NCBI GenBank assembly: GCA_964481835.1
Contig: CAYZTT010000003.1
Span: 1-48,751 of the forward strand
Length of the DNA: 48,751 nucleotides
Direction of reading: 5' to 3'
From: Candidatus Woesearchaeota archaeon
GTDB taxonomy: Archaea; Nanobdellota; Nanobdellia; SCGC-AAA011-G17; PNOQ01
The translations under genes and the position numbers were made by a program. The notes beneath the pieces were generated by a model that saw nothing but the letters and a program-made list of their open reading frames with translations, ran no database searches and was not told the DNA's origin. Below, piece by piece: positions 3,871 through 35,669 of this stretch; within the stretch, counting starts at the first letter, position 1, and each line of letters starts with the position of its first letter.

Positions 3871-3913
3871 TTTTTATCAAAAACTACTTAAATTAGAGAT
3901 TTAATTTATTGAT

Positions 3914-4669: not shown

Positions 4670-4744
4670 GGCGGCGTTGGTTTAACGGTAGAACGTAGGA
4701 TTGTGGATCCTATAGTCCGGGTTCGATTCCCGGGCGCCGTCCCA
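4670..4744 (+). tRNA. tRNA-His (anticodon GTG), canonical copy with G-1:C73 and encoded CCA
   Basis: Manual cloverleaf. G-1 (4670); acceptor GCGGCGT/GCGCCGT; D stem GTTT/GAAC. Anticodon stem TAGGA/TCCTA with loop TTGTGGA. T arm CCGGG-TTCGATT-CCCGG. Discriminator C, then CCA, then T6 (4745-4750). Confidence 0.9.
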
Positions 4745-4773
4745 TTTTTTCAAAACTTATTTAAATCTGTAAA

Positions 4774-17431: not shown

Positions 17432-18660
17432 ATAATCTCTCCGTAGCCAATTAAACGCCATCTTGCGCCAAGCATTCTAGAAATAGTTACTCTGTCTTGT
17501 TTGAAAGCACAAACTGGTTTTTTTAATTTTAGTTTTATAGAATCTTTTTTTAATTCGGATACAGTTCCCACTGTCGCGGTTGAATTTACATTAAGCATTA
17601 AGATTTCGTTCATTTTTATCGGATCAACTACCAATTCATCTTTTGAACCCACAACTCTTTCTAATAATTGTTGTTTTAGACTAAGCTCTTCTAGTGTATC
17701 AGGCATTTTCCCAGGTAAACCTACAACATTCCCAACTAAAGAATCTGATTTTACTAATGTTGGATCTAACTTAGTTTGAATTCCTGCAGATCCTCCAGGA
17801 GTTATTTCTGGAACTTCTTGATTTCCAGTTATTAGGGATTCAATTTGTGTTTGGATCGGTTCCCAGGTTATCTTATTTTGTTTTTCTGTTTTTATTCCAG
17901 GTTTTATTTCAATCAGATCTCCTTTTTTTAGGACCCCCGTTTTCATAGCACCACCAAGTACCCCCCCTTGAAGATTTTTTAGGATTGTCCCTGGCTTGTT
18001 TATGTCAAATGATCTTGCAACTAAGAATAAAGGATCTTTTTTAGAATCTCTTTCGGGGGTGGGAAATGTTTCTTGTATTGTCTGGATTAAAACGTCTATG
18101 TTAATACTATGTTGTGCTGAAATTGGAATTATTGGAGAATTTTTGAATTTTGTATCTTTTATGAATTCTTTAATTTGTGCATAGTTTTCTAGTACCTTTT
18201 CTTTTTCTACTAGATCTATTTTATTTTGAACTATGATTACATTTTCTATTCCTGCGATTTCTAGTGCCATTAAATGCTCTTTTGTTTGCGGTTGAGGGCA
18301 TTCTTCCGTTGCAGATACCATAAGTAGTGCTGCATCCATAATGGCGGCCCCAGAAAGCATTGTAGCCATTAGAGTTTCATGGCCTGGGGCATCTATGAAA
18401 GAAACTTTTCTTAATGGGATAAATTTTGCTTTTTTTTCAACAGTATAGCATTCTGGCTCTTTCTTGTCAGAGTCCTTATAGAAAGTAGTATCTGCGTAAC
18501 CTAGTCTGATTGTAATCCCTCTTTTTAATTCTTCAGAATGAACGTCTGTCCATTTTCCGGACAATGCTTGGGTCAGGGTTGTTTTTCCGTGATCTACGTG
18601 GCCTACTAAACCAATACTAATTTCTGGTTGTAATTCTTTTGTTTCATTTTTCTTCGCCAC
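17428..18660 (-). CDS. eif2g: translation initiation factor aIF2 subunit gamma
   Basis: [35 protein letters not shown] and NKIDL G motifs, and aIF2-gamma domain order. Confidence 0.9.
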
Positions 18661-19120
18661 TTTCTTTTGGTTCCTCTTTAGGAGTCTCTTTTACTTCTTC
18701 TTTCGGAGCTTCCTCTGTCTTTGTTTCTTCTGCTGGCTTTTCTGGTTCTTTTTCTAAACCTAAAATTTTTGGAAGAGTCTCTTTTCCATATTTTTCAACC
18801 TTTAAGTTAATTTGAGAGATTGTTTCATCAATAGTATTTCCATGCATGGTTTTCCTTTGTTGCATTCCTTTGGCCCTTTTCTTTTTTATGCCAACGCCTG
18901 TCACAAGTAGAGGTTTTTTCCTTCCAATGCCTTGTAGGTCAAATCTCATTGGGAATCCTTGTTTATCTGATCCACCAGTTATTGTGAATTCATAACCTTT
19001 GAAACCGAATTCGTCGCCGGAGACTTTTTCTCCGATTTTTTTATTTAAGAATGTATCTGATTCTATTTCTTTCTTGTAAGACTTTTTTGCTTTTACATCA
19101 TTTATTGTTAATTTGAACAT
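18644..19120 (-). CDS. rps6e: 30S ribosomal protein S6e (eS6) with Lys/Glu/Pro-rich tail
   Basis: [33 protein letters not shown] is the S6e signature. The C-terminal PKEE-type low-complexity tail overlaps the eif2g start by 17 nt. Confidence 0.9.
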
Positions 19121-19123
19121 TTT

Positions 19124-20842
19124 TTACATACCCCATGTCGGATTTTCATTTCTTTTGATTTCAGCGATTTCCTTTAACAATTGGACCTCTGATTCATTTA
19201 AATACTTTTTCATTAGTTTTTTAAGCTTTTTGAAGTCTCCTTGCGGAATATCTGAATATAATATATCGTTTTCTTTAACTTGTCTGCCACATGTAACGTT
19301 TGGTAGGGAGACTGCTATTTCCTTCCCTTGTTTTGCTTCTTGTACAGTTTCTTTGTTATCTTGTATCTCTTTTAATTCTGTTAATTTCTTTCCTTCTGCA
19401 TTCATTAAAGGAGTATTTGATCTTGCGGTTCCGATTAATACTTCTACTCCTACGATTGCAGGATTTAATTGCCTAAATATACAACCTGGCATAATTTTTA
19501 GTTTGAAAGGTTTTACTAAGTCTTGGAATTCTTTTTCTTCTAGTGATTTTGAAGCTTTTTCTGTGTACTCTATTATATCATCAATTATCTTATAGACTAC
19601 TTCGTTTGTAATTATTTTTACATCTTTTGATTCTTCCAAGACTTTAATATTAAATCCTACTACAATTTTATTTAGTGGATTTTCATTTGAAGAGGCTTCT
19701 GCTATATCGTTTTTTGAGATATTTCCTATTGCTGCCTTTTTGATTTTAATGTTCTTTGCTTTCAGTAATGAGATTAAGGCCTCTAAAGAGCCTAGTGTGT
19801 CTGCCTTTGCAACAATTCCTTCATTGTCAGTATCAATTGTAACTTCATCGATTTCTTGTTGGAGCTCTTCAATTATTCCTGCTTCATTCTTTTCATTAGA
19901 AACTCTGAGGGGCATGCCAGGAATTACGTCATCTATGTTTGGTGCTGCGATTTTTATTCCGGCAGAAGCATGTACTTCTTTTTCTTCTTTTAATTTTGAT
20001 TTTTCATATTTGAATAAACATTTTACTTTTGTTTTTATTGGGGCATTTAGGGTCCCTATTAGAATTGTGTCATTTTGTTTTATTTTTCCATCATAGATTA
20101 CTAAGTCTAGTGTTTTTCCAATTCCTTTTTCTTCTGTTACTTCTAGAATTGTTCCTTTTGCAGGTTTTTCTAAATCTGCCTCTAGGTTCTGCTCCAGATA
20201 TTTTTGGGCTAAACCAGAAATTACCATTAGTAATTCTGGCAAACCTTCTTTTGTTTTTGCAGAACAAGGGATTATTGCTACTTGTTTTGTATAATCTTGT
20301 AATCTATCGAATCTTTCTGATTGTAAACCATGTTCGTGAAGAGTTTGAACTATTTTGTATAATTTTGTTTCAATATCTTGGAGTACATAATCTTGCTGAT
20401 CTTGAATATTCTGTAAAATTGGTTTTTTATTTGAATTAAATCCTCCAACCCTATCGATTTTGTTTGCGGCCACAACGAAAGGAGTCTTTGAGTTCTTTAG
20501 TATTTCAATTGCTTCTAGTGTTTGAGGCTTTGCCCCTTCGTTCATATCTATTACTAAGATTGCAATATCTGCTATGTTTCCGCCCCTTTTTCTTAGGGTG
20601 GTGAATGCCTCGTGCCCTGGAGAGTCTATGAATAAAATCCCCGGGATTGTTAGATTTATGTTTTTAAGTAGATCTCCACATGTTTGTTGGATTTTTTTTA
20701 ATTCTATTGAATGTGCTGTGATGTTCTGAGTTATGCCTCCTGCTTCCTTTGCGGCAACGGAGGTTTCCCTAATGCTGTCTAAAATACTTGTTTTCCCGTG
20801 GTCTACGTGTGCAAGTAGAACACATATAGGTTGCCTTAACAT
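19124..20842 (-). CDS. infB: translation initiation factor aIF5B (archaeal IF-2)
   Basis: RQPICVLLAHVDHGKTSILDSIR, DSPGHEAF, NKIDR, and aIF5B domain order. Confidence 0.9.
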   Translation of the reverse strand: MLRQPICVLLAHVDHGKTSILDSIRETSVAAKEAGGITQNITAHSIELKKIQQTCGDLLKNINLTIPGILFIDSPGHEAFTTLRKRGGNIADIAILVIDMNEGAKPQTLEAIEILKNSKTPFVVAANKIDRVGGFNSNKKPILQNIQDQQDYVLQDIETKLYKIVQTLHEHGLQSERFDRLQDYTKQVAIIPCSAKTKEGLPELLMVISGLAQKYLEQNLEADLEKPAKGTILEVTEEKGIGKTLDLVIYDGKIKQNDTILIGTLNAPIKTKVKCLFKYEKSKLKEEKEVHASAGIKIAAPNIDDVIPGMPLRVSNEKNEAGIIEELQQEIDEVTIDTDNEGIVAKADTLGSLEALISLLKAKNIKIKKAAIGNISKNDIAEASSNENPLNKIVVGFNIKVLEESKDVKIITNEVVYKIIDDIIEYTEKASKSLEEKEFQDLVKPFKLKIMPGCIFRQLNPAIVGVEVLIGTARSNTPLMNAEGKKLTELKEIQDNKETVQEAKQGKEIAVSLPNVTCGRQVKENDILYSDIPQGDFKKLKKLMKKYLNESEVQLLKEIAEIKRNENPTWGM

Positions 20843-20889
20843 CTTATTATTTAGGCAAAAATCTAGTTTTAAAAAGGTTTTGGAGAGAA

Positions 20890-21378
20890 CTAATAGATGT
20901 GATCTTCATGACTTAACTTGTAATCAAATAATTCTTCTGGGGTGAACCAAAAGGATATTTCTCTTTTTGCGTATTCTGCATCTTCTGAAGCATGAATTAG
21001 ATTCTTTCCTTGATCCATTGCTCGAGTATATTCTTTACTTGTATGGGCATAATCCGCCCGGATGGTTCCTAAGTCTGCTTCTCCTGGATATGTAGAACCC
21101 ACGATTTTTCTTATGTGGGGGATGGCATTAATACCTTGGACAACCATTGCAACTACTGGAGCTTCTGTTACATAGTTAATTAGTTTCTGTCTAACTGCAT
21201 CTCCATGTCTTTCTGCTACTGCAGGATCATAATGTTTTTCTCCTAGTTCTTTTGAAGCCTTTATTAGTTTCATTCCAACTATCTTTAAGCCTCTTTGCTC
21301 GAACCTTTTGATTATTTCTCCGACAAGACCTCTTTGGACTCCGTCAGGTTTTACAAGAACTAGTGTTTGTTGTATCAT
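20890..21378 (-). CDS. ndk: nucleoside diphosphate kinase
   Basis: QTLVLVKPDGVQRGLVGEIIKRFEQRGLKIVGMK and NLIHASED (active-site His). Confidence 0.9.
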   Translation of the reverse strand: MIQQTLVLVKPDGVQRGLVGEIIKRFEQRGLKIVGMKLIKASKELGEKHYDPAVAERHGDAVRQKLINYVTEAPVVAMVVQGINAIPHIRKIVGSTYPGEADLGTIRADYAHTSKEYTRAMDQGKNLIHASEDAEYAKREISFWFTPEELFDYKLSHEDHIY

Positions 21379-21542
21379 TTTTCCTTAGAAGCCCATTTAA
21401 ACTTTACAGGTTTTCTTTTTAATTTAAGTAGGTTTTTTTCACATTTCATTGAGCAAAAGTTAAGGATTTTCCCGGTTTTATAGACATACATCTTCCCGGT
21501 TCCCTTTGGTACTTCTTTTGCACAGAATGAACATTTAACCAT
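21375..21542 (-). CDS. rpl24e: 50S ribosomal protein L24e (eL24); 55 aa, absent from the supplied ORF track
   Basis: My reverse-complement translation: MVKCSFCAKEVPKGTGKMYVYKTGKILNFCSMKCEKNLLKLKRKPVKFKWASKEK. This is the C-x2-C...C-x3-C zinc-ribbon L24e pattern. It starts 1 nt after the rps28e stop, and its TGA overlaps the ndk ATG (ATGA). Confidence 0.85.
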   Translation of the reverse strand: MVKCSFCAKEVPKGTGKMYVYKTGKILNFCSMKCEKNLLKLKRKPVKFKWASKEK

Positions 21543-21543
21543 T

Positions 21544-21807
21544 TTATTTACCTTTTGAGTTTATTCTTCTTGCTTCTATTTCAGTTTCTCTTAACATCAA
21601 TAAGTCACCAGGTTTTATTGGGCCCTTCACGTTTCTTCTTAGAATTTTATTTTGATCTCTTCCTTCCAAGACCTTACATCTAACTTGGGTGATTTCCCCT
21701 TTCATTCCTGTTCTACCAACTAATTCTTCAACTCTTGCCTGTACGGCTTCTTTGAATAGCTTGGTGTCTTCTTTCTTTTTTTTAATGTCTTTTTTTTCAG
21801 GTGCCAT
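21544..21807 (-). CDS. rps28e: 30S ribosomal protein S28e (eS28) with Lys-rich N-terminal extension
   Basis: [59 protein letters not shown]. Confidence 0.9.
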
Positions 21808-21809
21808 CT

Positions 21810-22103
21810 TTATTTTTTGCCTTCTTGTGTTACTGCAACTGCCGATGTGGATACTTGTAATCCTGCTGCTGCACCTAACTCTTCTTTAGAATCGACTTCT
21901 ACAAATGGAATATTCTTTTCTTCACATAGCGGTTTTAAATGCATTATTACCTCTGGTGGAGAAACATCTTTTCCTATAGCAACTAATTTGGCTACGCCTC
22001 TCTCTACGGCTTTTGTTACCTCATTAGTACCTTTTTTTATTTTTCCTGTTTTTTTTGCGAGCTCAATCGTTTCGAATGCTTGCTCTTGTGTTATTTCAGC
22101 CAT
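21810..22103 (-). CDS. rpl7ae: 50S ribosomal protein L7Ae (K-turn binding), short form
   Basis: [62 protein letters not shown]. Confidence 0.9.
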
Positions 22104-22151
22104 CTTAACCCTCCTATCATTAGGTTATTAAGAATTTGAGAATTGGTTATC

Positions 22152-22159
22152 TTTATAAA
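22152..22159 (+). promoter_or_regulatory. TATA box (TTTATAAA) upstream of the 22185 ORF
   Basis: The octamer ends 25 nt before the ATG at 22185. This argues against the TTG start at 22143 given in the ORF track. Confidence 0.4.
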
Positions 22160-22184
22160 TCTTTTTGTTGATATTTATCCTCCG

Positions 22185-22706
22185 ATGAGTCCCAAAGAAC
22201 ATAGAGTTTCGGATTATGCATGGAAATTGGCTAGCGGAGCATATGATATCGCAGGCGAGGAGGCCCCTGAAGACATTGACCTGGAAGTTGATGACTTAGA
22301 TATTATCGGTGATCCGATTTTGAGGGTATTTGTTCGAACTTTTCAAGAGGCAGGATTTAGACCAGATTTAAGATATTTTTCTCTTGATGACCTCGGCGAT
22401 GCTGGGCTTAAAATGGAATATCGCTTTGGTGAAGGGGATCCTTATTTGGAAAGCCCCGAAGATGCGGCATATAGGATGCTTGCAGTTGTAGATTTAGAAC
22501 ACAGATTTGTTAGTGAAGTTGATTTAAATGTTAGATCTAAGCGAGAGGGGATGGGTAGAAAACTTGTTGAAGCTAAGGAAGAACTTTGGAGAATGCTGGG
22601 CATTGAAGAGGTTTTTTTAGGTACTATTGATCCAAGTGATGCTGCAATACAATTTTGGAGCGCAATGGGTTATGATGTCTCTACATGCTATAAGAAATTA
22701 GATTAA
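22185..22706 (+). CDS. hypothetical acidic protein with weak GNAT-acetyltransferase-like C-terminus
   Basis: ORF taken from the ATG at 22185. C-terminal REGMGRKLVEAKEELWRMLGIEEVFL...AIQFWSAMGYD resembles GNAT motif A (R/Q-x-x-G-x-G/A ... F-Y/W-x-x-x-G-F/Y). G+C-richer than the core genes by eye. Confidence 0.4.
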   Translation: MSPKEHRVSDYAWKLASGAYDIAGEEAPEDIDLEVDDLDIIGDPILRVFVRTFQEAGFRPDLRYFSLDDLGDAGLKMEYRFGEGDPYLESPEDAAYRMLAVVDLEHRFVSEVDLNVRSKREGMGRKLVEAKEELWRMLGIEEVFLGTIDPSDAAIQFWSAMGYDVSTCYKKLD

Positions 22707-23137
22707 TCTTGTGTGGAACGTTCCCAAGCAACTTCTCCGTCACTATTTGTGTCTCTCAACGTTACGTTTTGTCGCCCACTCAGAATTCTTAGATTTGGAT
22801 TGTCTGATCGAAATTGATTTTCATACTGGGCAAATGATACGTTATATCCACCATGGTCCCCTTCTCCTGCGTAGGCTGAAGATTTACCATCTTGAATCAT
22901 ATACCAATCTGAAGGAGTAGATCTTGTTACGGTCGGGGCATTTGCTAGATGTTCTTGAGCTAGTCTACTTAACCTCATATCTTCCCTTATTTGAGGGATT
23001 GCCATTGCCGCGATTACTGGAAGAGCAAGCAACGTGGTTAAACCAAAAATTCTTCCCCAATTTGCTCCGTCTATACTAGTTATGGTTGGATATTGATCCC
23101 TTTGGGGATTTTCTGGATTGTGTATTTCTTTTGACAT
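22703..23137 (-). CDS. membrane-anchored hypothetical protein (144 aa, one TM, extracytoplasmic C-terminal domain)
   Basis: TM helix FGLTTLLALPVIAAMAIPQI. TTTATAAA at 23167-23174 lies 30 nt upstream of the ATG. No known motif. Confidence 0.5.
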   Translation of the reverse strand: MSKEIHNPENPQRDQYPTITSIDGANWGRIFGLTTLLALPVIAAMAIPQIREDMRLSRLAQEHLANAPTVTRSTPSDWYMIQDGKSSAYAGEGDHGGYNVSFAQYENQFRSDNPNLRILSGRQNVTLRDTNSDGEVAWERSTQD

Positions 23138-23219
23138 TTTGTAGTAATCTATCGGTAGTTACACTATTTATAAAGCTTTCTATAGTTAGCTTTTTATATT
23201 TAGCCTGTTAATAAATTTT

Positions 23220-24467
23220 ATGAAAAAGGGAGCGATTATTCTGATTTTTTTGATCATTTGTATATCTATTTCGCATGCGAGAGTCATTTATGTTCCAGGG
23301 GTAGAAGAACCTGAACAACTCAGAGATGAATTTGGGACAAAGAAGTTTGTTTATGCGGGCAATAATATTGTCGCGTCTGTTAAAGATTCTGGGGTTGAAT
23401 ATTATCATCAAGGAAGGTTAAGTAATAGGATTACTACGGATTCTGGAGGGGTCAAAGAGAGTGAATTTAAATCATTACCTTTTGGACAGAATGTTTTGAA
23501 CACAGGAGTTGATTATCCGTTTACTGGGAAGAAAGAGGATGAAAGTTCTTTGTATTACTTTGGAGCGAGATATTACGATGATAATTTAGGCAGGTTTATT
23601 TCTGTTGATCCTGTTAGAGAAAACGAGCCCTATTCTTATGTTAGAAATAATCCAATTATGCTAGTGGACCCCACCGGAATGGATGAAGAAGGGGTTCCCC
23701 CTGTTATGTCTCATGAATTTGGTATTGATCACCTAATGAATCAAGAAACACAGGATTTCTTGAATAGAAATGACCCTGAGTATATGATGAATAGATTTTA
23801 TGAAGAAAGATATCTCCAAATGGAACAAGGGAAAGAACAATTAAATCTCATTGTACCCTATAGGTCGCTCAGACGAATAAATGAAGCCCACATGCGCGGT
23901 GAGCAAGCAGATGTTGGAGATTATGTTAACTTCATTTCCGCAGGAATGCTATGGGCCACTGGATTGATAAAAGCAGGAAATGCAATGAGAGGGTTATCTT
24001 TTGGTAGATTAGGTAGTGTCCGAACACCAAGCAATTTAGGCAGAGGTATGCCTGTAAGAAGCAGCAATCTAATTGAATCTCTTGAAACTGGATTAAAAGG
24101 CGAAAGAAAGAGTTTACCTGAAGTATTGAAAGTATTTGATGATCATTTAGCATCAGGAGCCTTGGATCCAATTTCTCATCAAGCATATGTTGAAGGAACT
24201 GTAGAGCTGGCGTTCACTGAAGTGCAAGGCCATGTAGTTTCTCCGCATACTGCCGCAAGGCTTATGGTCAGAGCTTCACAGAATGGCCTGGCTACTAATG
24301 CTGCATCACCTGCTACAGGTGGTCGAAACATAATGAGTAGCATTCTATCTGAAGGTAAACAAACAGTATATAGCAATGGAGCCATCGAATACAACTTAAA
24401 TAATAATCTCTTGATTATTAGAGAACCTGAAACTAGTATGATTTCAACATTCATAAGTAGACAATAA
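23220..24467 (+). CDS. secreted polymorphic-toxin-like protein 3: signal peptide + minimal RHS core + unique 261-aa C-terminal domain
   Basis: Signal MKKGAIILIFLIICISISHA. Core YPFTGKKEDESSLYYFGARYYDDNLGRFISVDPVRENEPYSYVRNNPIMLVDPTGM ends at nt 23681. The C-terminus is unrelated to copies 1 and 2. Confidence 0.8.
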   Translation: MKKGAIILIFLIICISISHARVIYVPGVEEPEQLRDEFGTKKFVYAGNNIVASVKDSGVEYYHQGRLSNRITTDSGGVKESEFKSLPFGQNVLNTGVDYPFTGKKEDESSLYYFGARYYDDNLGRFISVDPVRENEPYSYVRNNPIMLVDPTGMDEEGVPPVMSHEFGIDHLMNQETQDFLNRNDPEYMMNRFYEERYLQMEQGKEQLNLIVPYRSLRRINEAHMRGEQADVGDYVNFISAGMLWATGLIKAGNAMRGLSFGRLGSVRTPSNLGRGMPVRSSNLIESLETGLKGERKSLPEVLKVFDDHLASGALDPISHQAYVEGTVELAFTEVQGHVVSPHTAARLMVRASQNGLATNAASPATGGRNIMSSILSEGKQTVYSNGAIEYNLNNNLLIIREPETSMISTFISRQ

Positions 24468-24472
24468 AAAAA

Positions 24473-24916
24473 TTATTTTTCAGCCATATACTCCACGACT
24501 TTCGCAATGTATTCAGACATTTTTTCTCTTGGCATAGCATCATTGTCCCCAAGAACAACTTCAATCAATACATTCTCAATACCATCAACCTCTGTTCTAA
24601 TAAGTTCAAGGTTTGCATGATAGTGATCACATATGTCCTGTGCCGTGACTGATTCATCTTCCAAATACATTTCACACATCTTCTTCAATTGAGAAACTGG
24701 TTCCATCGAGTATTCAGTAGCTTCTGCTCTTTCACCCATGACAAATACTGAGTATGGACTTCCTTTCTTAGTGAACAAATCCATCTCCACATCGCCATCT
24801 CGTTCAACAGTCTGAGAGTAATCCAGACCAAAGACAACATCTTCTACGTTACTGCCTTTATCATAGACAAAACCATCAATTTCAATTTGTTCTGCTTGCA
24901 TTTTTTCGTCTAACAT
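24473..24916 (-). CDS. hypothetical acidic protein (147 aa)
   Basis: Start reassigned to the ATG at 24916, 1 nt after the upstream stop and preceded by AAGGGGGG. The longer track ORF (to 25060) would overlap the nucleotidyltransferase gene by 143 nt. Confidence 0.5.
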   Translation of the reverse strand: MLDEKMQAEQIEIDGFVYDKGSNVEDVVFGLDYSQTVERDGDVEMDLFTKKGSPYSVFVMGERAEATEYSMEPVSQLKKMCEMYLEDESVTAQDICDHYHANLELIRTEVDGIENVLIEVVLGDNDAMPREKMSEYIAKVVEYMAEK

Positions 24917-24917
24917 T

Positions 24918-25721
24918 TTATAACCCCCCTTTTCTATGTTCAATAAGATAATCATTAAGTTTTTCATAACCAGGCTTTTCTGGTAGAGTAGATTCTTGCA
25001 AAGCATTCTCCAACTCTCCCTCCAGTCTGTTAAGTGTTTCTGCCAATTCTTTTCTGTCATAACTTATCGGATCCCCAATTTCTGATTGTCTCTTATCATC
25101 AATCATTCTTTCTACAATAGGCACATCATACAACATAGCTAATTCAGCAACATCAGGTTGAACTTCACCAGTTTTAAGTAAATGAATTCCTGTAAGCATG
25201 GCTCTGACCGCATACAAATCTGTCTTTACAGATTGTTCTTCTGTTCTACCACCTTCTGCCAAATTTCTCGAAAAGTTCAAGTAATGATTGAACAATGCCT
25301 TACTAACACCTGATTCCAGAACAGTCTCCCTGAATTCCTGAAATTCTGGAGACTCATAGATAATTATTGAGTTCTGCCACTCCAACCTGTTTCCATTAGA
25401 GTTGGCAATCAGGCTTAGATAATGGCCGATTTCATCCAACGCAATATCAATTGTCCTATCTTCGCTCATATGCGAGAATGTTCGATCCGGTGTTTTCTTG
25501 ATACCTAAGAAGTCTTCAGTTGGAGCTTTGAATACTCCTCTGATGTCGTAATCGCTATCTTCTGAGGGAAACCCATAGCTGTGAGCGCCTGTAAGGGCTA
25601 GAAATATGATATTTCCCTGAGCATTCATCTCATCAACTAAATCTCTCTTGTCTAGCTCAGAGAGCACTTTCTCTCTCAAATCTTGCTCAGTTCTATTAAA
25701 TCTACTATTAGTTGATTTCAT
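24918..25721 (-). CDS. predicted nucleotidyltransferase (Pol-beta superfamily, RlaP/PF10127-like)
   Basis: IIFLALTGAHSYGFPSEDSDYDIRGVF fits the G-[SA]-x-x-Y-G...SDxDxxG signature of this family. Confidence 0.65.
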   Translation of the reverse strand: MKSTNSRFNRTEQDLREKVLSELDKRDLVDEMNAQGNIIFLALTGAHSYGFPSEDSDYDIRGVFKAPTEDFLGIKKTPDRTFSHMSEDRTIDIALDEIGHYLSLIANSNGNRLEWQNSIIIYESPEFQEFRETVLESGVSKALFNHYLNFSRNLAEGGRTEEQSVKTDLYAVRAMLTGIHLLKTGEVQPDVAELAMLYDVPIVERMIDDKRQSEIGDPISYDRKELAETLNRLEGELENALQESTLPEKPGYEKLNDYLIEHRKGGL

Positions 25722-25959
25722 ACCCCATTTATGAACATCTTAGTATTTAAACCTTTCGTTTTTTAACCACTATTGAGTAACAAACATGGTGATTCTGAGC
25801 TTTAAAGTATCTTATGTGTTGTTCTGGAACAGATGAAACCTTCTATTCCCCCATTCAAAAGACCTTCAACCCCCTTATTTCTTTCCACACTATTTATAAA
25901 TACATCCTCTCTCTCCCAGCTATTGTATTCAATACGCTTAACATGAATATAACACTAAA

Positions 25960-27237
25960 ATGGTACTAGACAAGCTGTCAGGAAGTCTGAAGAGCACGTT
26001 GTCAAAGATTACAGGTGCTACATTTGTAGATGAAAAACTCATCAATGAGGTAGTTAAGGATATCCAGAGAAGCCTCTTACAATCTGATGTGAACGTTAAA
26101 TTAGTGCTTCAGATCAGCCAGAAGATAAAAGAAAGGGCTGTGAAAGAAGCTAGTCCAGACCAGCTCACTAAGAGAGAGCAGTTAGTAAACATTGTTTATG
26201 AAGAGCTTGTGGAGTTCTTAGGAGGTCCTGGGCCTAAAATTGAGATCAAAAAAAAGCCTTTTGTGATCCTTCTAGTTGGACTTTTTGGTAATGGTAAAAC
26301 CACTTGCGCAGGCAAGTTAGGAAAGTATTACAGCACTCGAGGCCGCAAGGTCGCTCTTTTGAGTACTGATACTTGGCGGCCTGCAGCTGCAGACCAGCTA
26401 ACTCAGCTTGCTGAAAGTATAAATGTCAATGTCTACACTAACAAGAAGGAGAAGAATCCTGTTAAGATCTACAAGCAGTTCGAGAAAGATCTACTAAAGC
26501 ATGATGTCATAATTGTAGATACTGCAGGCCGTGACGCTCTGAATGATGAGCTTGTTGAGGAACTAAATGGCATTAATAAGGTTGTCAAGCCTGATGAAGT
26601 TTTGCTTGTTATGAGTGCTGATATTGGTCAGGCTGCTCAAGAGCAAGCTCAGAAGTTCCACGATACTGTCAATGTCAGCGGTGTTGTTATAACTAAACTT
26701 GATGGTACTGCAAAAGGTGGAGGCGCATTGATTGCTTGTAGTGTTACTGGCGCTCCTGTAAAATTCATTGGTGTCGGTGAAAAGATTGATGATATTGAAG
26801 AATTCAAACCAGAAGGTTTTGTAGGACAACTGCTCGGCATGGGAGATCTTGAAGCACTACTTGAAAAAGCCAAAGAGGCAATGACTGAAGAAGATGCCCA
26901 AGATATGGGATTTTTTGATAAGATTGGTCTAGGTGGGACGCTTGGAGGAATAAAAAAAGATTTGACAAAAATATATGATGCCAAATTTGGGCAAGAAGAG
27001 ATAAGTGGTCCAACACAAAGTTTTATGTTTACAACTGCGGAGAGTGCGGATAAAGCTATTAGCCATTATGGCCGAGATGCATTTGTTAGCTATCCAGATA
27101 CAACGGTTCTTTGGAAACCTTTTGAACGTTTGTCATTGGGGGCCTATAGTATACGCGATACACTTTATTATGAAGAGAGAGATGATGGAATTCGAAGTTA
27201 TATATTAAAACCAGGCTTTGATATGGGGAAGCAATAG
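25960..27237 (+). CDS. srp54: SRP54-type GTPase: N and G domains intact, M domain absent and replaced by an unrelated tail of about 110 aa
   Basis: N domain MVLDKLSGSLKSTLSKITG...; G1 GLFGNGKTT; DTWRPAA; G3 DTAGR; G4 TKLDGTAKGG; LLGMGDLEALLEKAKE. After about aa 316 (nt about 26905) there is no Met-rich M domain in this or any other frame. Confidence 0.8.
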   Translation: MVLDKLSGSLKSTLSKITGATFVDEKLINEVVKDIQRSLLQSDVNVKLVLQISQKIKERAVKEASPDQLTKREQLVNIVYEELVEFLGGPGPKIEIKKKPFVILLVGLFGNGKTTCAGKLGKYYSTRGRKVALLSTDTWRPAAADQLTQLAESINVNVYTNKKEKNPVKIYKQFEKDLLKHDVIIVDTAGRDALNDELVEELNGINKVVKPDEVLLVMSADIGQAAQEQAQKFHDTVNVSGVVITKLDGTAKGGGALIACSVTGAPVKFIGVGEKIDDIEEFKPEGFVGQLLGMGDLEALLEKAKEAMTEEDAQDMGFFDKIGLGGTLGGIKKDLTKIYDAKFGQEEISGPTQSFMFTTAESADKAISHYGRDAFVSYPDTTVLWKPFERLSLGAYSIRDTLYYEERDDGIRSYILKPGFDMGKQ

Positions 27238-27271
27238 TTAGTTTTTTATATATTCTATATTTCCTTTTTTT

Positions 27272-27763
27272 ATGGCCAAATCAAGAGCACAAGAATTAAC
27301 GGAATTTATAATTGCATCTCGGACTATTGGGGCCCCCTTAAGGAGTTTGGGAGATAGGGCTAAAAGAAGAGATGAAAAAAGAAGGGATCAACTTTATGGA
27401 ATTCTTAGAGAGGTTGATGGTGTTAATTTTCAAGGAGAGATTGTTCGTTCGAATATTACTTGGGAAGATGATAATAAGGCAAGAGGGATGAAATTGGGTG
27501 TAGAGGAGTTTAGGCAGAGGCATCCAGTTTATGGAAAAAGGCTACAAGCAATGATTGATGAACATCGTAAAGTAAGAAGGGCACATCTGCATGTCGGATT
27601 TTCTGGCAAAGAGGACTTGCCCAGAGAAGTATATATGGCGGTTTTAGAGGATATGGGGATTACTGGAAAATTGGCAGGGAGGGTATATGATGATGCAATC
27701 GCAATATCTAATGCCTTTGATAAGGATTATCGGGCAGATCAGACTTTATTGTTGCCAGAATAA
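27272..27763 (+). CDS. hypothetical basic protein (163 aa)
   Basis: Clean ATG ORF with a TATA-like element upstream. No recognisable motif. Confidence 0.5.
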   Translation: MAKSRAQELTEFIIASRTIGAPLRSLGDRAKRRDEKRRDQLYGILREVDGVNFQGEIVRSNITWEDDNKARGMKLGVEEFRQRHPVYGKRLQAMIDEHRKVRRAHLHVGFSGKEDLPREVYMAVLEDMGITGKLAGRVYDDAIAISNAFDKDYRADQTLLLPE

Positions 27764-27765
27764 GG

Positions 27766-27773
27766 TTTATAAA
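27766..27773 (+). promoter_or_regulatory. TATA box (TTTATAAA) of gltX (leaderless-type spacing)
   Basis: The octamer ends 22 nt before the gltX ATG (27796). Confidence 0.45.
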
Positions 27774-27795
27774 TTCTTAGATTAACTTTATTTTA

Positions 27796-29433
27796 ATGGT
27801 TGAAAAAAGTGAATTGAGAAGATATGTTTTGGATAATGCGGTTTTGTATAAAGGCAAGGCAAATTTGAAATCAGTAGTAGGGCACTTGATTGGGAAGTTT
27901 CCTGAAGTTAAGGAAGATATGAAGAATTTTATGAAAGACTTGAGGGAAATTGTTGATGATGTAAATTCTATGACTTTAGAGAAACAAAACATTGAGTTAG
28001 AAAAGCGGGGAAAAATTATTAGAGTTAAGGAGGAATCTGGATTGTTTGATTTCTTAGGAATTGAAAATGAGAAGGTTATTACTGCGTTTCCTCCAGAACC
28101 AAGCAAATATTTACATATCGGGCATGCGAAATCGCTATTGTTGAATTATTTGTTGGCTAAAGAACATAAAGGGAAATTTATTTTGAGATTTGAAGATACC
28201 AATCCTGAATTAGTGGACAAGAATTTTTATGATATCATTTTGGAAGATGTTGAATGGCTTGGGATTCAACCAGATAAAATCCAGTATGCCTCCGGTAATA
28301 TGGAATTGTTTTATGATTGTGGAAAGAAGTTAATAAAATCTGGAGATGCATATATTTGTTTTTGTGATTCTGATTCTATTAAGGAAAATAGAAGGAAAAA
28401 AGTTGAATGCGAATGTAGAAATGTTGATCATCTAGATAATTTGAGAAATTGGTTAGATTTTTTTAAAGCTCCTAAAGGGAAATGTGTTGTTAGACTAAAG
28501 GGAGATATGAATCATAAGAATGCAGTAATGCGGGATCCTACTTTGTTTAGGATTATGACTAAGGAACACCCTAGAACTAAGAAAAAATATAGGGTCTGGC
28601 CAACTTATGAATTTCAGAATTCTATAATGGATGGGCATTTCAAGGTGAGCCATAGGTTTAGAGGAAAAGAGTTTGAGAATATGGCCGAGTTGCAGAAATA
28701 TATTCAAGGGCTATTGAAATTAAAAGTTACAAATACGTATGAGTTTGCTAGATTTAATATGGTTGGGATTTTGAGTTCGGGCAGAACAATTAGAGAGAAG
28801 ATTGAGAAGAAAGAGTTGAAAGGCTGGGGTGATCCCAGGTTAACTACTCTGGTTGCTTTGAGAAGAAGGGGGTTTTTGCCCGATGCCATAAAAGATTTTG
28901 TTGTTTCAACAGGAATTTCTAAGTCGGAAAGTAAAATGACTTGGGAAGATTTAATTATTAAGAATAAAAGAAAAATTGATGCGGTTGCTAGCAGGTATTT
29001 TTTTATTGAAGACCCTAAGAAAATCAAGATAGAAGGTTTTGGGGGAAAGGATATTGAAGTCCCGTTGCACGTTGATCACCTAGATTTGGGGGTTAGGAAG
29101 TTTAAAGTTAAGGATAATTTTTATGTTTCTGATAAATTGAGCAAGAGTAAATATTATCGGTTTATGCATTTATTCAATTTTAAGAATGGAAAGTTTGTTT
29201 CTGAAGAATTGGACAGGAGTTTGGATGCTAAATTGATTCATTGGTTACCAGTTTCTAAAGATTTAGTTAAAGTTCGGGTTCTGATGGATGATGGAGAGTA
29301 TGTTTCTGGATTAGCCGAGAAAGGGGTTAAGAAATTGAAGATTGGGGATTTAATTCAATTTGAGAGATTTGGGTTTGTTAGATTGGATAAGAAAGGGAAA
29401 GGTAAGTTGGAGTTTATTTTTACGCACAAATGA
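27796..29433 (+). CDS. gltX: glutamyl-tRNA synthetase (archaeal/eukaryal type)
   Basis: FPPEPSKYLHIGHAKSLLLNYLLAKEHKGKFILRFEDTNP (HIGH region), WPTYEFQNSIMD, and a C-terminal anticodon-binding beta-barrel region. Confidence 0.9.
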   Translation: MVEKSELRRYVLDNAVLYKGKANLKSVVGHLIGKFPEVKEDMKNFMKDLREIVDDVNSMTLEKQNIELEKRGKIIRVKEESGLFDFLGIENEKVITAFPPEPSKYLHIGHAKSLLLNYLLAKEHKGKFILRFEDTNPELVDKNFYDIILEDVEWLGIQPDKIQYASGNMELFYDCGKKLIKSGDAYICFCDSDSIKENRRKKVECECRNVDHLDNLRNWLDFFKAPKGKCVVRLKGDMNHKNAVMRDPTLFRIMTKEHPRTKKKYRVWPTYEFQNSIMDGHFKVSHRFRGKEFENMAELQKYIQGLLKLKVTNTYEFARFNMVGILSSGRTIREKIEKKELKGWGDPRLTTLVALRRRGFLPDAIKDFVVSTGISKSESKMTWEDLIIKNKRKIDAVASRYFFIEDPKKIKIEGFGGKDIEVPLHVDHLDLGVRKFKVKDNFYVSDKLSKSKYYRFMHLFNFKNGKFVSEELDRSLDAKLIHWLPVSKDLVKVRVLMDDGEYVSGLAEKGVKKLKIGDLIQFERFGFVRLDKKGKGKLEFIFTHK

Positions 29434-29873
29434 AAAATTTTGATTTATTAAATAGCAAGGAAATAAAGAAATTAAATAAGCAGTTAAAAGAACAATTTGG
29501 AAACGAATTTGATTTTAAGGAATATTTGGTTTATAGAACTCCGAAAGATAGAATCTATATTGTTAGTAGGGAATTTGGGGAACATGATTTTTCTAAGATT
29601 AGAATTAATAATGTTGGTTTGTATTTTTTGAGTATTGTGAAAGATGGAGTTAGATTGAGTATTGATGGTTCCCAATTGTTTAAACCAAAGAAAAATGTTT
29701 TAGAATTAACTAAAAAGGATTTTGAGAAGTGGATGACTGGGGAAGATTTAAACTTGGAAATGGAGAATGGATATTTTTTGATTAAGTATAAGAATGAGTT
29801 CTTAGGTTGTGGAAAGAGTAATGGCGAAAAGATTTTTAATTATGTTCCTAAAGCTAGAAGAGTTAAATTTTAG
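29430..29873 (+). CDS. PUA-like RNA-binding protein (Nip7 / RsmF C-terminal-like)
   Basis: DRIYIVSREF and the C-terminal GYFLIKYKNEFLGCGKSNGEKIFNYVPKARR resemble the pre-PUA+PUA module of Nip7/RsmF-type proteins. ATGA overlap with gltX. Confidence 0.5.
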   Translation: MKNFDLLNSKEIKKLNKQLKEQFGNEFDFKEYLVYRTPKDRIYIVSREFGEHDFSKIRINNVGLYFLSIVKDGVRLSIDGSQLFKPKKNVLELTKKDFEKWMTGEDLNLEMENGYFLIKYKNEFLGCGKSNGEKIFNYVPKARRVKF

Positions 29874-30352
29874 AATTTAAACGCTAATCCGGCAGATGCT
29901 CTGCTTCTTGGGTGGCCCCATTTGAATAGATCATCTTCTCCGAATGCCTGTGTTATGTCAAATCTGAATTCTGAATTATCTGAAAGTCCTAAGCCCAGTC
30001 CTAGGTCGAGTAAAGTTGCGTTTCCGTTTGGTCCACCTTGTGTCACTTTTCCTCTTCGCAGACCTTGTCTTAATGATACTGGGCCAATTCTTTCCCTGGC
30101 GCCAACACCGAAGGACCTACATGATCTTTTTAAAAATCCTTCTGCTAGAAATTCACTTGTTAATCCAATTTCTAAACCACTTGTGAGTTCCTTGTAAGCC
30201 TCTAAATCAAGCGAATAGTGTCTTTCTCCACTCTCTGAAGAATTATAGCCGGTATTTATGCCGATGTACTTGTTTATGGGCCCCGCTATTGCGCTTGCAG
30301 CCCATAATGTGGTTGCTAGGATTGCTGTTCCTAATCTAAGAGCGTATTTCAT
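29870..30352 (-). CDS. secreted beta-rich protein resembling a bacterial 8-stranded outer-membrane beta-barrel (OMP_b-brl-like)
   Basis: Start set at the ATG at 30352, with TTTATAAA at 30376-30383, 24 nt upstream. Signal MKYALRLGTAILATTLWAASAIAG. First strand YIGINTGY, alternating hydrophobic pattern, and the OMP-type C-terminal signature AGLAFKF with terminal Phe. Confidence 0.45.
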   Translation of the reverse strand: MKYALRLGTAILATTLWAASAIAGPINKYIGINTGYNSSESGERHYSLDLEAYKELTSGLEIGLTSEFLAEGFLKRSCRSFGVGARERIGPVSLRQGLRRGKVTQGGPNGNATLLDLGLGLGLSDNSEFRFDITQAFGEDDLFKWGHPRSRASAGLAFKF

Positions 30353-30413
30353 TTTTATTAAAAAACACGACAACTCTTTATAAATCTTTCTATTTTTAAC
30401 TACTATTTAGTAA

Positions 30414-31160
30414 TTAAAATATTTCTGATAGCCAGGAGAAGAATTTTGCTAGGATATTTGGGCTTTTTTGGACAGTTTTTTTATCTGAAGAGGCATATGG
30501 CCTTAGGCTATAGATATTTTGATTGCCCTCGCCCTCTTTACAATCTGGATCTAGATAGTCTAGGCAATCGGGATCACATTTTTTATCTTTTTTTCCATCG
30601 CAATATGTATCCTTTTCGCCGCTTGGACAATCTGATGGGCAATTTTTGTTGTTCTCTCTAATTTTTCCATTACAATAGCCATCTTCTTTACATTTGATTT
30701 CTAAATATTTTTTCTCAGAACTTGTGATTGTTATATCTCCTGAAGAGTCTTTTACTTGTATTTCTGGTAATTCTATTGTTCCGGAACTTGGGATTATTTC
30801 ATAGATAGTTTCTATTGTTATCTCCTTAGTTTCCTTGGGGCCAATTGTTAATGTGTACTCTAAATAGGGTTCTCTGATATCCGTTTCTGTGTGTTTTTTT
30901 ATTTCTGCTCCGATACTTGAAGTTATTGATTCTCCCATAGCATAGTTTGTGTCTCTTGTAATTTTAATTTCTTTTTCTATATCTTCTAAGTTTTCTATTA
31001 TGAATGAAAGTTCTATTGGTTCATTTACTATTGCGCTTGTTTTTGTAGATTCGAAATACTTTGCATTCATCGTTGCAGCGTGAGTGCTTGTTGCTAGAAG
31101 GATTAATAATAAAGTCCCAGTGATTAGTTTTGCTTTTTTATGTTCCATTTTTATTCGCAT
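30414..31160 (-). CDS. secreted protein with Cys-rich C-terminal module (alternative start 31148)
   Basis: Signal AKLITGTLLLILLATSTHA. A beta-rich middle region. C-terminal CKEDGYCNGK...CPSDCPSGEKDTYCDGKKDKKCDPDCLDYLDPDC echoes the DPDC-type Cys motifs of the upstream giant protein. Overlaps or abuts its stop. Confidence 0.6.
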   Translation of the reverse strand: MRIKMEHKKAKLITGTLLLILLATSTHAATMNAKYFESTKTSAIVNEPIELSFIIENLEDIEKEIKITRDTNYAMGESITSSIGAEIKKHTETDIREPYLEYTLTIGPKETKEITIETIYEIIPSSGTIELPEIQVKDSSGDITITSSEKKYLEIKCKEDGYCNGKIRENNKNCPSDCPSGEKDTYCDGKKDKKCDPDCLDYLDPDCKEGEGNQNIYSLRPYASSDKKTVQKSPNILAKFFSWLSEIF

Positions 31161-34100
31161 TCCAATCTGTCACAGTTTTCACTTGAACAGATATTTCCTC
31201 CGCTATCTATCAATGCCCCATCTTCGTTTTGACAGTATATCTCTTGACTCTGGTCACTTATAATCTCATTCCCATATAGTGTTAGGAATAAGTAATTATC
31301 TTCAATATAATCCTCTATATCTATGCAGATTTCGCAGCCTATACCGTTTTCTATTTTATTCTGAATTATATTTTCCGTTAAGTGTATTCTTTCATTGTCG
31401 TATACAGTTCTACCATCGTGAGAATAACCACTTATGTTTATAGTGGTGTTTATTAATTCGTTGTATGAGACTGAGGTTTTATTTGAATTTTCTATTAATA
31501 TACCAACTCTTGGGATTCCCTGATTACTTATGATTTTATTGCTTGTTATCCAAGTGCGCTCAGGTCCGATTTCCTTTGCTTTTATTGAGATTATATTATT
31601 TTTTAGTATGTTGCTACTCAACACATTTTGATACGGTGATTCTGAGGTTACCTCTGGGAAATTAACTCCAACCCCCCAATTAGAAAGATTCAGATAGTCG
31701 ACTCCCACATCTCCGTGCCCGTTGAAATCTATCCCGATTTTTGAGTTGCAATTTGGCCCTACACAGTTTATTTGGGTTTCTCCTTGATCAAGAGCTATTA
31801 TCTCTATATCATCTGCACCGATGACTATGCCTTCTTCGAGGTTGAAAACCCCTGGACAGAATGTTGTACTTTCGGTTAGTATCATGCCGCTTGTAGGTGT
31901 GGTGTAACTGCAGGCATCTGAGCAATCTAAGTTATCGCAATTATCACTGTCACATATGTTTGAACCATAATGGGCATCTACTATTGGCTCTGCAGGGTTT
32001 TGGCAATAGATATCTATGTTTCCATTGTTTGAAATTGTGTTTTGGGCGATTTTTACAAACCTTTCTTCCTCGAGAGAGTTTAGGTTTATCTTTATACCAT
32101 GGTTGAGAGTATCGAAATCGTTTTCTATAGTGTTGTTCTCAACTTTTATCCCATCTGTATTTGAACCCTCGAGAGTAATCATAGAGTTTTTTATTATATT
32201 ATGACTTATTTTGCTATATTCAGAAGGATTTCCTGTGACATTGATTAAATGTATTTCGTTTGGCCTGCTTGGGTCATCACTATTAAAATTGGAATACCAT
32301 ACTTCTATGCTTGAGTTCTTTACACCCGTCTTTATTGCTTTTATACTATTATTTATTGTGATTTCTTCTATATCTACTTCTGGAGATACTTCAGTTTCAT
32401 CTCCTTCCTCATGTGTTTTTATGCCAGTCCCCCATCCGTTTAAAGTTATATCCCTTATGGATATTCCATCTTTCCCATTTGTGTTTATGCCTGTTTGCGA
32501 ATCGCAATTTGGGCCTATGCAGTTTATGATTGCTCCATTTCCATCTATCTCTTGTCCATCTAATAGGAATGTTAAGCCTTCTTCTAGATTGTATTCTCCT
32601 GGACATAGGTAAGTTATTTCATCGGTTAATATCAATCCGTCCTGGGGGATTGTGTCCATGCAGGCCAAGTCGCAACCATAAATATTTTCTCGGGCCCAAT
32701 AATCTGCCTCGTAGTCTGAAAAATCGAAGTGTTGGTTTTCGTGTCCTATTTCAAATCTTACATCAAATAATCTGGGTATTTCGCCGATATCCCAACAATA
32801 ATGTATGTTGGTGCCTAAGACACTTTGAGCAACAGCGTCTGCCACATTTTCGACCTTCTTTCCATAATCATATACAACCCATTTTCCAACTTCAAAATCA
32901 TATATTAGATTCCAGGTGTGAAATCCTCCTCCTATAGAGAGTACTAGATCTCCGTCTTGGTCGTTGGCTGGGAAATATCCCGTTTTCCTTAGTAGCGAGG
33001 TTGCTGCAAATGACCAATCATCGCACACACCAGTTTTTAGTGTTGCTAAGGTTGTTTTTGCTGGCTGTTCCCTGTGTTTACATAATCCCGGAGTTCTAGG
33101 TCCAGGGCAATCCATATATTGTACTTCTTCACCGAAGACGTAAAGAGTGTCCCAATCATAGTAGGGATTTGCGCAATGGTTATTCTCGGGGGAATGATTC
33201 CCCCATCCCTCTTGACAGGCATCTTCGAATCTGCCCCTTAATGGGTTGTACCAACCCATGTCTTGTACCTCGCAGCAATATTCTGGGGTGAAATAGTTCC
33301 ACATCCATAATTCGTCATCTAGGTGGTGGATGGGCCTTTTAAAGCCCCAATTTAGATTGGTTTCTATATATTCCCTTAGGCATCCCGTCATTCTCCTTTG
33401 GTGAGTTGGGTATTGGAAAGAATTAAGTTTTGCGTGATAGCAAATTTCTGTGTTTCTATTGTTGATAATTCTCATATCCCCTGGTTCGTTTTCACAACAG
33501 TCTAAGGCGTCATCTATTATATAATCCATATAATTTGCTTCTTCGTCTTCAATGTCGCTTCTTACAGTCATTAAACTACAAGAATCTCTTTCTCCAGATT
33601 CAGTAAACCAGTTGTATAGGTGAACTACATAGTTTCCTTGGTAATTGCTCACACAATTTGTATCTTCTGGTTCGTGGGGAGTTATACATTGGCAATTATA
33701 ACAAAATCCTTCATTACAATCTTCCCCATAAGGCTCACACTCTTCTCCAATAGTTATTTCTTCTTCGAGGCTCTCAAATGTAATTGTTTCGGTCGTTACT
33801 TCCCCATCTCCGCAATAAAAACCCATTATTTTATTCGAATTTGTTTTTCCCACGTTTAATGTGCCTTCAATATTTTCAAAAAAGCAATCTTCACGATCAC
33901 ATAATAGGTCATATTCGGTGTTGTTTTCTATGTAATTGTATCCATCTATTTCTACACCCCATGCTTTCAGATACAGGCCAACGTGGGCGTTATCTCTAAT
34001 TATGTTGTTTCGTAGACGTATATCTCCTACTTTATCGAATAAGAGGGCTGAACGATACCTTGGGACTATAGTTCCTGCGCCGGCAAACAAACCTTCAGTG

Positions 34101-35569: not shown

Positions 35570-35669
35570 ACTATCACCTTTTTAGTAATTTTACTTATTT
35601 ATTTTAGATTTATTAATATATCGTTTTATCAACGAAAAACCTTTTAAATGTCTCTATATTTAGAAATTC

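Follow-up and report, generated by a model that had tools for sequence, protein, structure and literature searches.

The window analysed in the present study is the whole of contig C3 (CAYZTT010000003.1; 48,751 nucleotides, nt) of assembly G000 (GCA_964481835.1; 728,899 bases in 47 contigs, with an estimated completeness of 99.56%), which belongs to a Candidatus Woesearchaeota archaeon. It contains an open reading frame (ORF) of 425 amino acids (aa), as read from the ORF list and its translation, that begins as SRP54, a protein of the signal recognition particle (SRP), and ends as something else. An initial annotation, made from the sequence alone, had described it as an SRP54 with intact N and G domains, no M domain, and an unrelated tail of about 110 aa, and had offered three readings: a disrupted or recombined gene with a second copy elsewhere, an in-frame assembly chimera, or a repurposed SRP-GTPase fusion. 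Here we call the fusion protein P0001, its tail P0002 (window positions 26905-27234), and the 163-aa product of the next ORF downstream P0003. P0004 (395 aa) and its cluster mate P0007 are database toxin relatives of the tail, on contigs of 70,977 and 105,722 nt, and G001 to G005 are five relatives of G000 in the same genus. Coordinates of the features are collected in Table 1.

The first 316 residues of P0001 are, by their domains, those of an archaeal SRP54 (Ffh/SRP54), with a canonical N domain, G domain, and start of the linker between the G and M domains. Pfam assigned residues 6 to 83 to SRP54_N (PF02881), the N-terminal four-helix bundle (E = 4.7e-18; 65.6 bits against a cut-off of 22.4), and residues 100 to 293 to the SRP54 GTPase domain (PF00448; E = 8.4e-68), and the GTPase motifs GxxGxGKTT, DTAGR, TKLDG, and LGMGD are readable in the protein. 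Residues 294 to 316 are the beginning of the G-M linker, and the foreign tail starts at Met317 (nt 26905). The initial annotation thus located the break correctly, although it took this position for the end of the G domain, which Pfam places at residue 293. The N and G domains with the linker start (hereafter N+G, residues 1-316) are 58-72% identical to full-length SRP54 of Woesearchaeota-type archaea. They keep 82 of the 84 alignment columns that are at least 95% conserved, the deviations being A38S and R290Q; six control sequences deviate at 0 to 3 of these columns. The NCBIfam model ffh (TIGR00959) aligned residues 4-316 to its positions 2-318 of 428 and scored 319.6 bits, below the cut-off of 473.2, since P0001 offers nothing that corresponds to the final quarter of the model, the M domain. 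SRP54_euk (TIGR01425) likewise scored 308.1 bits against a cut-off of 576.25. The FtsY model TIGR00064 was weaker than both SRP54 models (221.5 bits, cut-off 260.7), and the FlhF model gave 79.7 bits.

The M domain itself (SRP_SPB, PF02978) was not matched in P0001 even at E <= 1. In all six frames of the entire assembly, nothing was found with PF02978 at E <= 10, and 14 of 14 control genomes were positive. A tblastn search with the last 150 residues (M domains) of the SRP54 of seven relatives matched only the shared linker (26845-26910), and similarity to every SRP54 relative ends at nt 26904-26910. The two scans rule out that an M domain is encoded in a different frame or elsewhere in the assembly; the absence from neighbouring frames that had been noted at first thus extends to the whole assembly, and the description as SRP54 with N and G domains intact and the M domain missing is upheld. 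Judged by its sequence, the fusion would have neither a signal-peptide groove nor SRP-RNA binding. A product without the domain that binds signal peptides and SRP RNA cannot act as SRP54, and since P0001 has neither this domain nor orthology with the SRP54 of its genus (see below), it should not be filed as such.

That the tail is not an SRP54 sequence was recognized in the initial annotation, but it is not without relatives. When the tail alone was compared with 1.84 billion representative proteins by phmmer, one strong match was obtained, the Rhs-core protein P0004 (E = 1.5e-41; 68% identity), in which residues 284-390 align to residues 1-107 of the tail; BLASTP and alignment confirmed this. 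The homology begins exactly at Met317 ('MGFFD'). P0004 and P0007, the latter called 'RHS repeat-associated protein' in one source, consist of a signal peptide, an Rhs_assc_core segment (TIGR03696, residues 87-154, above the cut-off), and a variable C-terminus of about 240 aa. According to matches in the PDB, the Rhs-core segment maps to the end of the TcC/Rhs cocoons, directly ahead of the toxin cargo. The N-terminal 150 or so residues of P0004 match, at 52-73% identity, no fewer than 12 paralogous places in G000, and the 5' 450 nt of the toxin gene in the window are repeated at least 12 times in this genome. The tail therefore comes from the C-terminus of one member of a toxin family that is present in many copies and polymorphic at its C-terminal end.

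The tail represents only the last 45% or so of the toxin variable region (residues 284-390 of 155-395) and is thus probably an incomplete domain. The middle of the P0004 variable region (residues 155-283) was not found in G000, and no Rhs-core match was present upstream of the tail within 25960-26904. Among 5.8 billion protein clusters, the tail is common only to the cluster of P0004, and no homologue of it was detected in 40 relatives, in 240 genomes of the order, or in a scan of GTDB contigs. P0002 contains no Pfam or NCBIfam family. A divergent but genuine M domain in residues 316-425, which the initial annotation had allowed for, is ruled out by the negative Pfam and NCBIfam profiles together with the clear homology to a different protein, P0004. 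Structure models of the tail and of P0003 had mean predicted local distance difference test (pLDDT) values of 41 and 45, respectively, too poor for fold searches. Leads to a zincin-like peptidase for the toxin C-terminal region (atlas search, scores of 0.80-0.87) were rejected, being under the reliability line, and the HExxH motif is absent.

The fusion ORF is part of an accessory block of 4.6 kb. When window positions 18000-36000 were compared with G001-G005 by blastn, the flanks were collinear at 74-84% DNA identity and the block had no counterpart; the comparison of orthologous loci proposed at the outset thus shows that the block with the fusion is absent from all five genomes of the genus. 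The left flank contains the genes for IF5B, ndk, L24e, S28e, and L7Ae, up to 22169, and the right flank starts with gltX from about 27760. The spacing between the L7Ae gene and gltX is 255-860 nt in the relatives, compared with 5.6 kb in G000, and the empty sites of G005 and G002 define one discrete insertion. Its left end lies about 36 nt upstream of the toxin gene's ATG and its right end is the stop codon of P0003; it sits between the conserved divergent promoter of a small minus-strand gene and the TATA element and start of gltX, with both flanks undamaged. A tRNA gene as integration site at 23129-23201 was considered and rejected; there is no tRNA at this position, which corresponds to the conserved divergent promoter and the 5' end of the small minus-strand gene.

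Table 1. Features of the accessory block and of the fusion ORF (window positions)
Feature	Position	Strand	Description and basis
Accessory block	~23184..27757	+	Toxin gene through P0003; absent from G001-G005; blastn and empty-site alignment
Full-length exported Rhs-core polymorphic-toxin paralogue, 415 aa	23220..24467	+	TIGR03696, E = 5.8e-20, above cut-off
195-aa acidic ORF	24473-25060	-	Overlaps the nucleotidyltransferase gene; no family match
RlaP-family nucleotidyltransferase	24918-25721	-	Pfam PF10127, E = 1.1e-31
TATA-box-like element TTTATAAATA	25893..25902	+	About 60 nt 5' of the fusion ATG; read from the sequence
Fusion ORF (P0001), 425 aa	25960..27237	+	ORF list and translation
SRP54 part	25960..26904	+	N domain 25975-26208, G domain 26257-26838, first 22 linker residues; Pfam, NCBIfam, trees
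Junction	26905..26910	+	Codons ATG GGA (Met-Gly) common to both parents; alignments
Tail	26905..27237	+	110 codons; 3' end of the variable C-terminal region of an Rhs-core toxin; phmmer, BLASTP, alignment
P0003, 163-aa ORF	27272..27763	+	35 nt 3' of the fusion ORF; stop at the right border of the block

The 415-aa toxin encoded 1.5 kb upstream of the fusion ORF, on the same strand, has a signal peptide, an Rhs_assc_core segment at residues 87-154, and a 261-aa variable C-terminus that differs from that of P0004. No homologue of the nucleotidyltransferase or of the acidic ORF was present beside any SRP54 relative examined. P0003 has no family in Pfam or NCBIfam and no homologue beyond its own cluster at 90% or higher identity, which includes a 95%-identical strain variant on a 953-nt contig of another assembly; from its position, it may be the immunity gene of the displaced toxin end. 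A PADLOC search with the five island proteins gave no defence-system matches. A TATA motif of the same type as TTTATAAATA lies about 31-34 nt before the ATG of both the toxin gene and gltX, and TTTATAAATA may be the promoter of the fusion ORF.

A second variable stretch is located between the L7Ae gene and the block (window 22143-23137). It contains a GNAT-like ORF of 187 aa (weak Pfam match) and an ORF of 144 aa on the minus strand; at this position the relatives have only a different small membrane protein or lipoprotein gene, of 61-136 aa.

Phylogenetic analysis indicated that the N+G does not derive from the SRP54 of the genus. It is 62-64% identical to the SRP54s of the genus, which are 83-96% identical among themselves; for example, the SRP54 of G004 is 63% identical to that of G000, 95% to that of G001, and 86% to that of G005. 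Among 20 neighbour proteins that served for calibration, none has as large an identity deficit as SRP54; the others differ by 0-25 points. In maximum likelihood trees, the N+G was placed outside a strongly supported clade (support of 99/98, 97 [SH-aLRT], and 100/98 in three trees) that comprises families f1, f4, f16, and f22 of the order, including the genus and three other genera of its family. The approximately unbiased (AU) test rejected a grouping of G000 with the genus clade (p = 0.0025; log-likelihood difference of 50). The N+G branch (0.21-0.27) is not long, and measured from the common node the N+G lies closer than the genus does; thus, acceleration is not the explanation. The nearest relatives of the N+G (70-72% identity) are from Woesearchaeota metagenome-assembled genomes and metagenome contigs outside the 240 searched genomes of the order. 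The N+G pairs with two of these at 94/80 support and shares with its nearest relatives the unusual motif DTWRPAA. All of these relatives are full length (439-471 aa), and a metagenome scan with P0001 likewise found only full-length SRP54 relatives, at identities of 71% or lower. The fusion also differs from archaeal SRP54 in its location, which is not the FtsY-SRP54-Bud32 position, and it branches outside its own genus, family, and order. By phylogeny, the N+G is a xenologue, a fragment of the SRP54 of another lineage and not the genus's own.

At the junction, the SRP54 relatives read D(L/M)G(K/R)K and P0004 reads E-M-G-F-F-D, so the overlap of the parents amounts to two codons, about 6 nt. 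The G+C content at third codon positions (GC3) falls here from 0.36 in the N+G to 0.245 in the tail, values at the 93rd and the 10th percentile of the genome, respectively. The source assembly joins contigs through exact 55-mers; with parents that overlap by about 6 nt, a chimera of the assembly graph is unlikely. Furthermore, no 31-mer or longer word is common to window positions 22100-27800 and the co-assembled congener G003. We regard it as highly probable that the junction is real DNA.

We also asked where the SRP54 of the genus would be encoded in G000. In G001, G004, and G005 the gene order is: genes like those of G000 contig C28, then gene X and FtsY, then SRP54, then a Bud32-like kinase and genes like those of contig C20. 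FtsY of G000 is encoded on contig C37 (2.3 kb), and at the end of C20 lies the start of the Bud32-like gene, truncated by 21 codons. Bases 1-55 of C37 are the end of contig C57 and the start of contig C81 of G003, with the first mismatch at base 56. Bases 8652-8706 of C20 are bases 1-55 of contig C24 of G003, and joining both completes the kinase ORF. These exact terminal 55-mers common to G000 and G003 indicate that the two were binned from one co-assembly at k = 55. The contigs break where the congeners are identical over at least 55 nt, which fragments the FtsY-SRP54-Bud32 region in both bins. Contig C24 of G003 carries a full-length SRP54 of the genus type 4.6 kb further on and is by similarity G003's own. 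As the likeliest missing piece of G000 it was rejected: its first 771 nt are 87% identical to G001 (G000 is 80% identical there), and its SRP54 is 93-94% identical to those of G001 and G004, which is typical of G003.

Full-length SRP54 was found in 39 of 41 relatives, and the only other exception is G002, which is 93% complete and lacks a match to SRP54 and FtsY alike, pointing to a missing contig. A search of G000 for a second srp54 and for SRP RNA, as recommended initially, yielded an archaeal SRP RNA (C21:466-735; 109 bits over the full model, above the Rfam gathering threshold) but no second SRP54 with an M domain in the bin; the SRP-type GTPases of G000 are only two, the fusion ORF and FtsY. 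Neither G000 nor any of the 24 relatives that were searched gave an SRP19 (PF01922) match over the cut-off; its absence is thus typical of the lineage and no sign of decay in G000. Since the native locus falls in contig gaps and both SRP RNA and FtsY are present, the lack of an M domain in the bin is weak evidence for its lack in the organism. G000's own SRP54 with the M domain is probably encoded between FtsY and the Bud32-like gene and was lost from the bin.

Several minor observations were made on this region. The lineage appears to run the SRP with SRP54 and FtsY but without a recognisable SRP19. The case of G002 most likely shows the same hard-to-assemble region dropping out of bins repeatedly. 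An ORF of about 490 aa with LAGLIDADG-like motifs lies downstream of and convergent to FtsY (positions 1 to about 480 of G000:C37, plus strand, continuing into G003:C81). It is present in G000 and G003 (about 90% identical) and not in G001, G004, or G005, and it interrupts the adjacency of FtsY and SRP54. Contig C24 of G003 contains an exact direct repeat of 71 nt (4084-4154 and 4760-4830) that corresponds to the 3' end of the SRP54 gene. Enclosed by the two copies are a gene for a small lipoprotein and an N-terminal remnant (88 codons) of the Bud32-like kinase; a second, complete start of this kinase is found 4 kb away at the beginning of the contig. The arrangement resembles a further scar, left by insertion or duplication in the congener's native SRP54 locus. 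The FtsY match in G004 (C6:33409-34275) holds one in-frame TGA.

The explanation that we favour, with moderate confidence, is that the fusion ORF is a real chimeric gene produced by recombination within a polymorphic-toxin island, and not a working SRP54. The locus would formerly have carried a P0004-like toxin gene followed by P0003. DNA entering from another Woesearchaeota lineage, on which a related toxin gene and the nucleotidyltransferase pair were accompanied by the first two-thirds of that donor's SRP54 gene, may then have taken the place of the 5' part of the resident toxin gene. The crossover on one side would have occurred in the conserved block of the Rhs core, and the other join would have been illegitimate, at the ATG GGA microhomology between the linker of the donor SRP54 and the C-terminal region of the resident toxin. 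As a result, the last 110 codons of the old toxin and P0003 would have been displaced downstream as an orphan module, by chance in frame with the N+G, and the nucleotidyltransferase pair would have come along with the incoming DNA. Translation of the fusion would give a cytoplasmic GTPase that consists of the N+G and ends in the truncated remnant of a toxin. Of the readings offered initially, a recombined gene with a second copy elsewhere comes closest, except that it is not the organism's own gene that was broken: the N+G is foreign by phylogeny and lies in the inserted toxin block.

A similar displacement is known in bacteria. At cdi and rhs loci, newly acquired toxin/immunity cassettes insert into the main gene, and the old 3' end is thereby moved downstream together with its immunity gene, as an orphan with the orientation of the main gene (PMC4927057). 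As in the orphan rhs-CT/rhsI and cdiA-CT/cdiI modules, a toxin 3' fragment here lies downstream of a full-length gene of the same family, in the same orientation and followed by a small ORF, in a strain-specific island. The orphan modules, however, keep the conserved core upstream, which allows re-fusion by homologous recombination, and in G000 the N+G of SRP54 stands in its place. Furthermore, G000 is archaeal, and the toxins concerned are of a short form with a signal peptide and the Rhs-associated core only. The known modules include a cognate immunity gene, for which P0003 is, by position, the candidate here. Homology-facilitated illegitimate recombination, in which one homologous anchor is combined with one microhomology join, occurs in bacterial transformation. 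The present locus resembles its outcome, with the multi-copy Rhs core as a possible left anchor, the two-codon microhomology at the right, and foreign passengers between them; in our case the process would be deduced from the end product only, and it is not known from DPANN archaea.

Several points weigh against this origin. The N+G shows no decay, with an open frame of 317 codons and just the two conserved columns changed, which fits either a very recent event or a maintained function. The orphan module has no core homology upstream, unlike typical orphan modules. The junction was seen in one assembly only, since P0001 is recorded three times in the databases but always from this contig of 48,751 nt. 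A relative of P0003 might be expected beside P0004-type toxins, and none was detected outside its cluster. The donor order of toxin, nucleotidyltransferase, and SRP54 was not found beside the closest SRP54 relatives. Finally, the SRP54 contig of G003 is unbroken; thus, a native SRP54 of G000 would share no 55-mer with it and should assemble to a size suitable for binning, and none is in the bin.

In a rival reading, the fusion ORF would be the sole SRP54-type protein of the organism, the native copy having been lost or replaced and protein targeting being broken or independent of the M domain. PF02978 and tblastn were indeed negative in a bin estimated to be almost complete, FtsY is the only other SRP-type GTPase, the N+G is perfectly preserved, and no G000-type contig in the bin extends C20 or C37. 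In addition, the FtsY of G000 is unusually diverged (69% identical to that of G004, which is 86% identical to that of G001 and 79% to that of G005). Nevertheless, we consider this unlikely. The SRP RNA, the partner of the M domain, is intact; relatives have a full-length SRP54 throughout, apart from G002 with its missing contig; and the absence of SRP19 is shared by all relatives searched. The native locus falls exactly in the gaps due to shared 55-mers, and contigs under about 1.5 kb were dropped from the bin (its smallest contig is 1,509 nt, whereas the G003 bin retains contigs of about 1 kb). Moreover, because the N+G is foreign, two independent damaging events would be needed.

Another possibility is that the fusion is functional and repurposed, for example by modulating the SRP receptor, by acting as its decoy, or in a toxin or immunity role of the island. 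The reading frame continues across the join, which falls exactly in the flexible G-M linker; the GTPase motifs are all intact, as are nearly all conserved columns; a TATA-like element lies upstream; and the tail is free of stops and has kept its 68% identity to its relative. SRP-type GTPases that combine N+G with a different extra domain do exist, namely FtsY and FlhF. However, their extra domain is N-terminal and conserved across lineages, whereas that of the fusion is C-terminal and a lineage-unique toxin remnant; also, the N+G of the fusion is of the SRP54 type, scoring highest with ffh, and G000 has a separate FtsY. Neither the 5.8 billion clusters and the 1.84 billion representatives nor the order's 240 genomes and the contig collections (metagenome and genome) contained a second fusion of an N+G with such a tail. 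The repurposed SRP-GTPase fusion of the initial annotation, being a singleton in these clusters, genomes, and two contig collections, is thus unsupported. The tail is probably an incomplete domain, there are no defence-system matches, and the structure models of the tail and P0003 are unusable. We therefore regard a functional fusion as quite unlikely. It is very doubtful, too, that the fusion is the only SRP54-type protein or a maintained accessory one, an M-less N+G GTPase that would run the SRP receptor cycle or interfere with it.

An artefact of assembly or library preparation, in which a chimeric read or a wrong path in the graph joined different molecules or organisms of the sample, is improbable, and with it the in-frame assembly chimera proposed at first: the bin does come from a co-assembly with at least one congener and contains contig pairs that are 78-90% identical, the N+G belongs phylogenetically to another lineage, GC3 shifts at the junction, and the fusion protein is known from one contig only, but joining needs exact 55-mers and the parents share at most about 6 nt, no 31-mer of the region is shared with G003 and no shared k-mer vertex lies in the block, a second false join would be required upstream of 25960 although the block is contiguous, the outer borders of the block match the empty site of the relatives within a few bases, and the join is in frame and inside an inter-domain linker.

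Recombination within the toxin island, as favoured above, has practical consequences. The ORF will be labelled 'signal recognition particle protein' and satisfies SRP54-type marker models, and it cannot do the job of SRP54; the true SRP54 gene is probably absent from the bin despite the completeness estimate of 99.6%. Under this reading, the locus is a concrete record of DNA exchange between Woesearchaeota lineages. It also shows, for DPANN-type archaea, that cassettes turn over at Rhs-core toxin loci, here with an illegitimate join where the two parents share two codons. The native region illustrates how a conserved locus breaks up at shared k-mers when congeners are co-assembled. If, on the other hand and less probably, the organism has no M domain or maintains the N+G-tail protein, this would bear on the limit to which the universally conserved SRP pathway can be reduced. 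A sole or maintained SRP54-type protein of this kind would mean an ultra-small archaeon with a toxin-derived C-terminal module that still encodes SRP RNA and FtsY.

As for the assembly as a whole, the G000 contig pairs C31/C32, C33/C39, and C1(1-600)/C41 are 78-90% identical over their ends or entire length, which suggests admixture of strains or congeners despite a contamination estimate of 0.29%. At the beginning of the window, two tRNA-His(GTG) genes (3798-3871 and 4671-4744) are separated by 0.8 kb; an archaeal RNase P RNA (910-1208) and the 3' end of the 23S rRNA (1-150) are encoded nearby.

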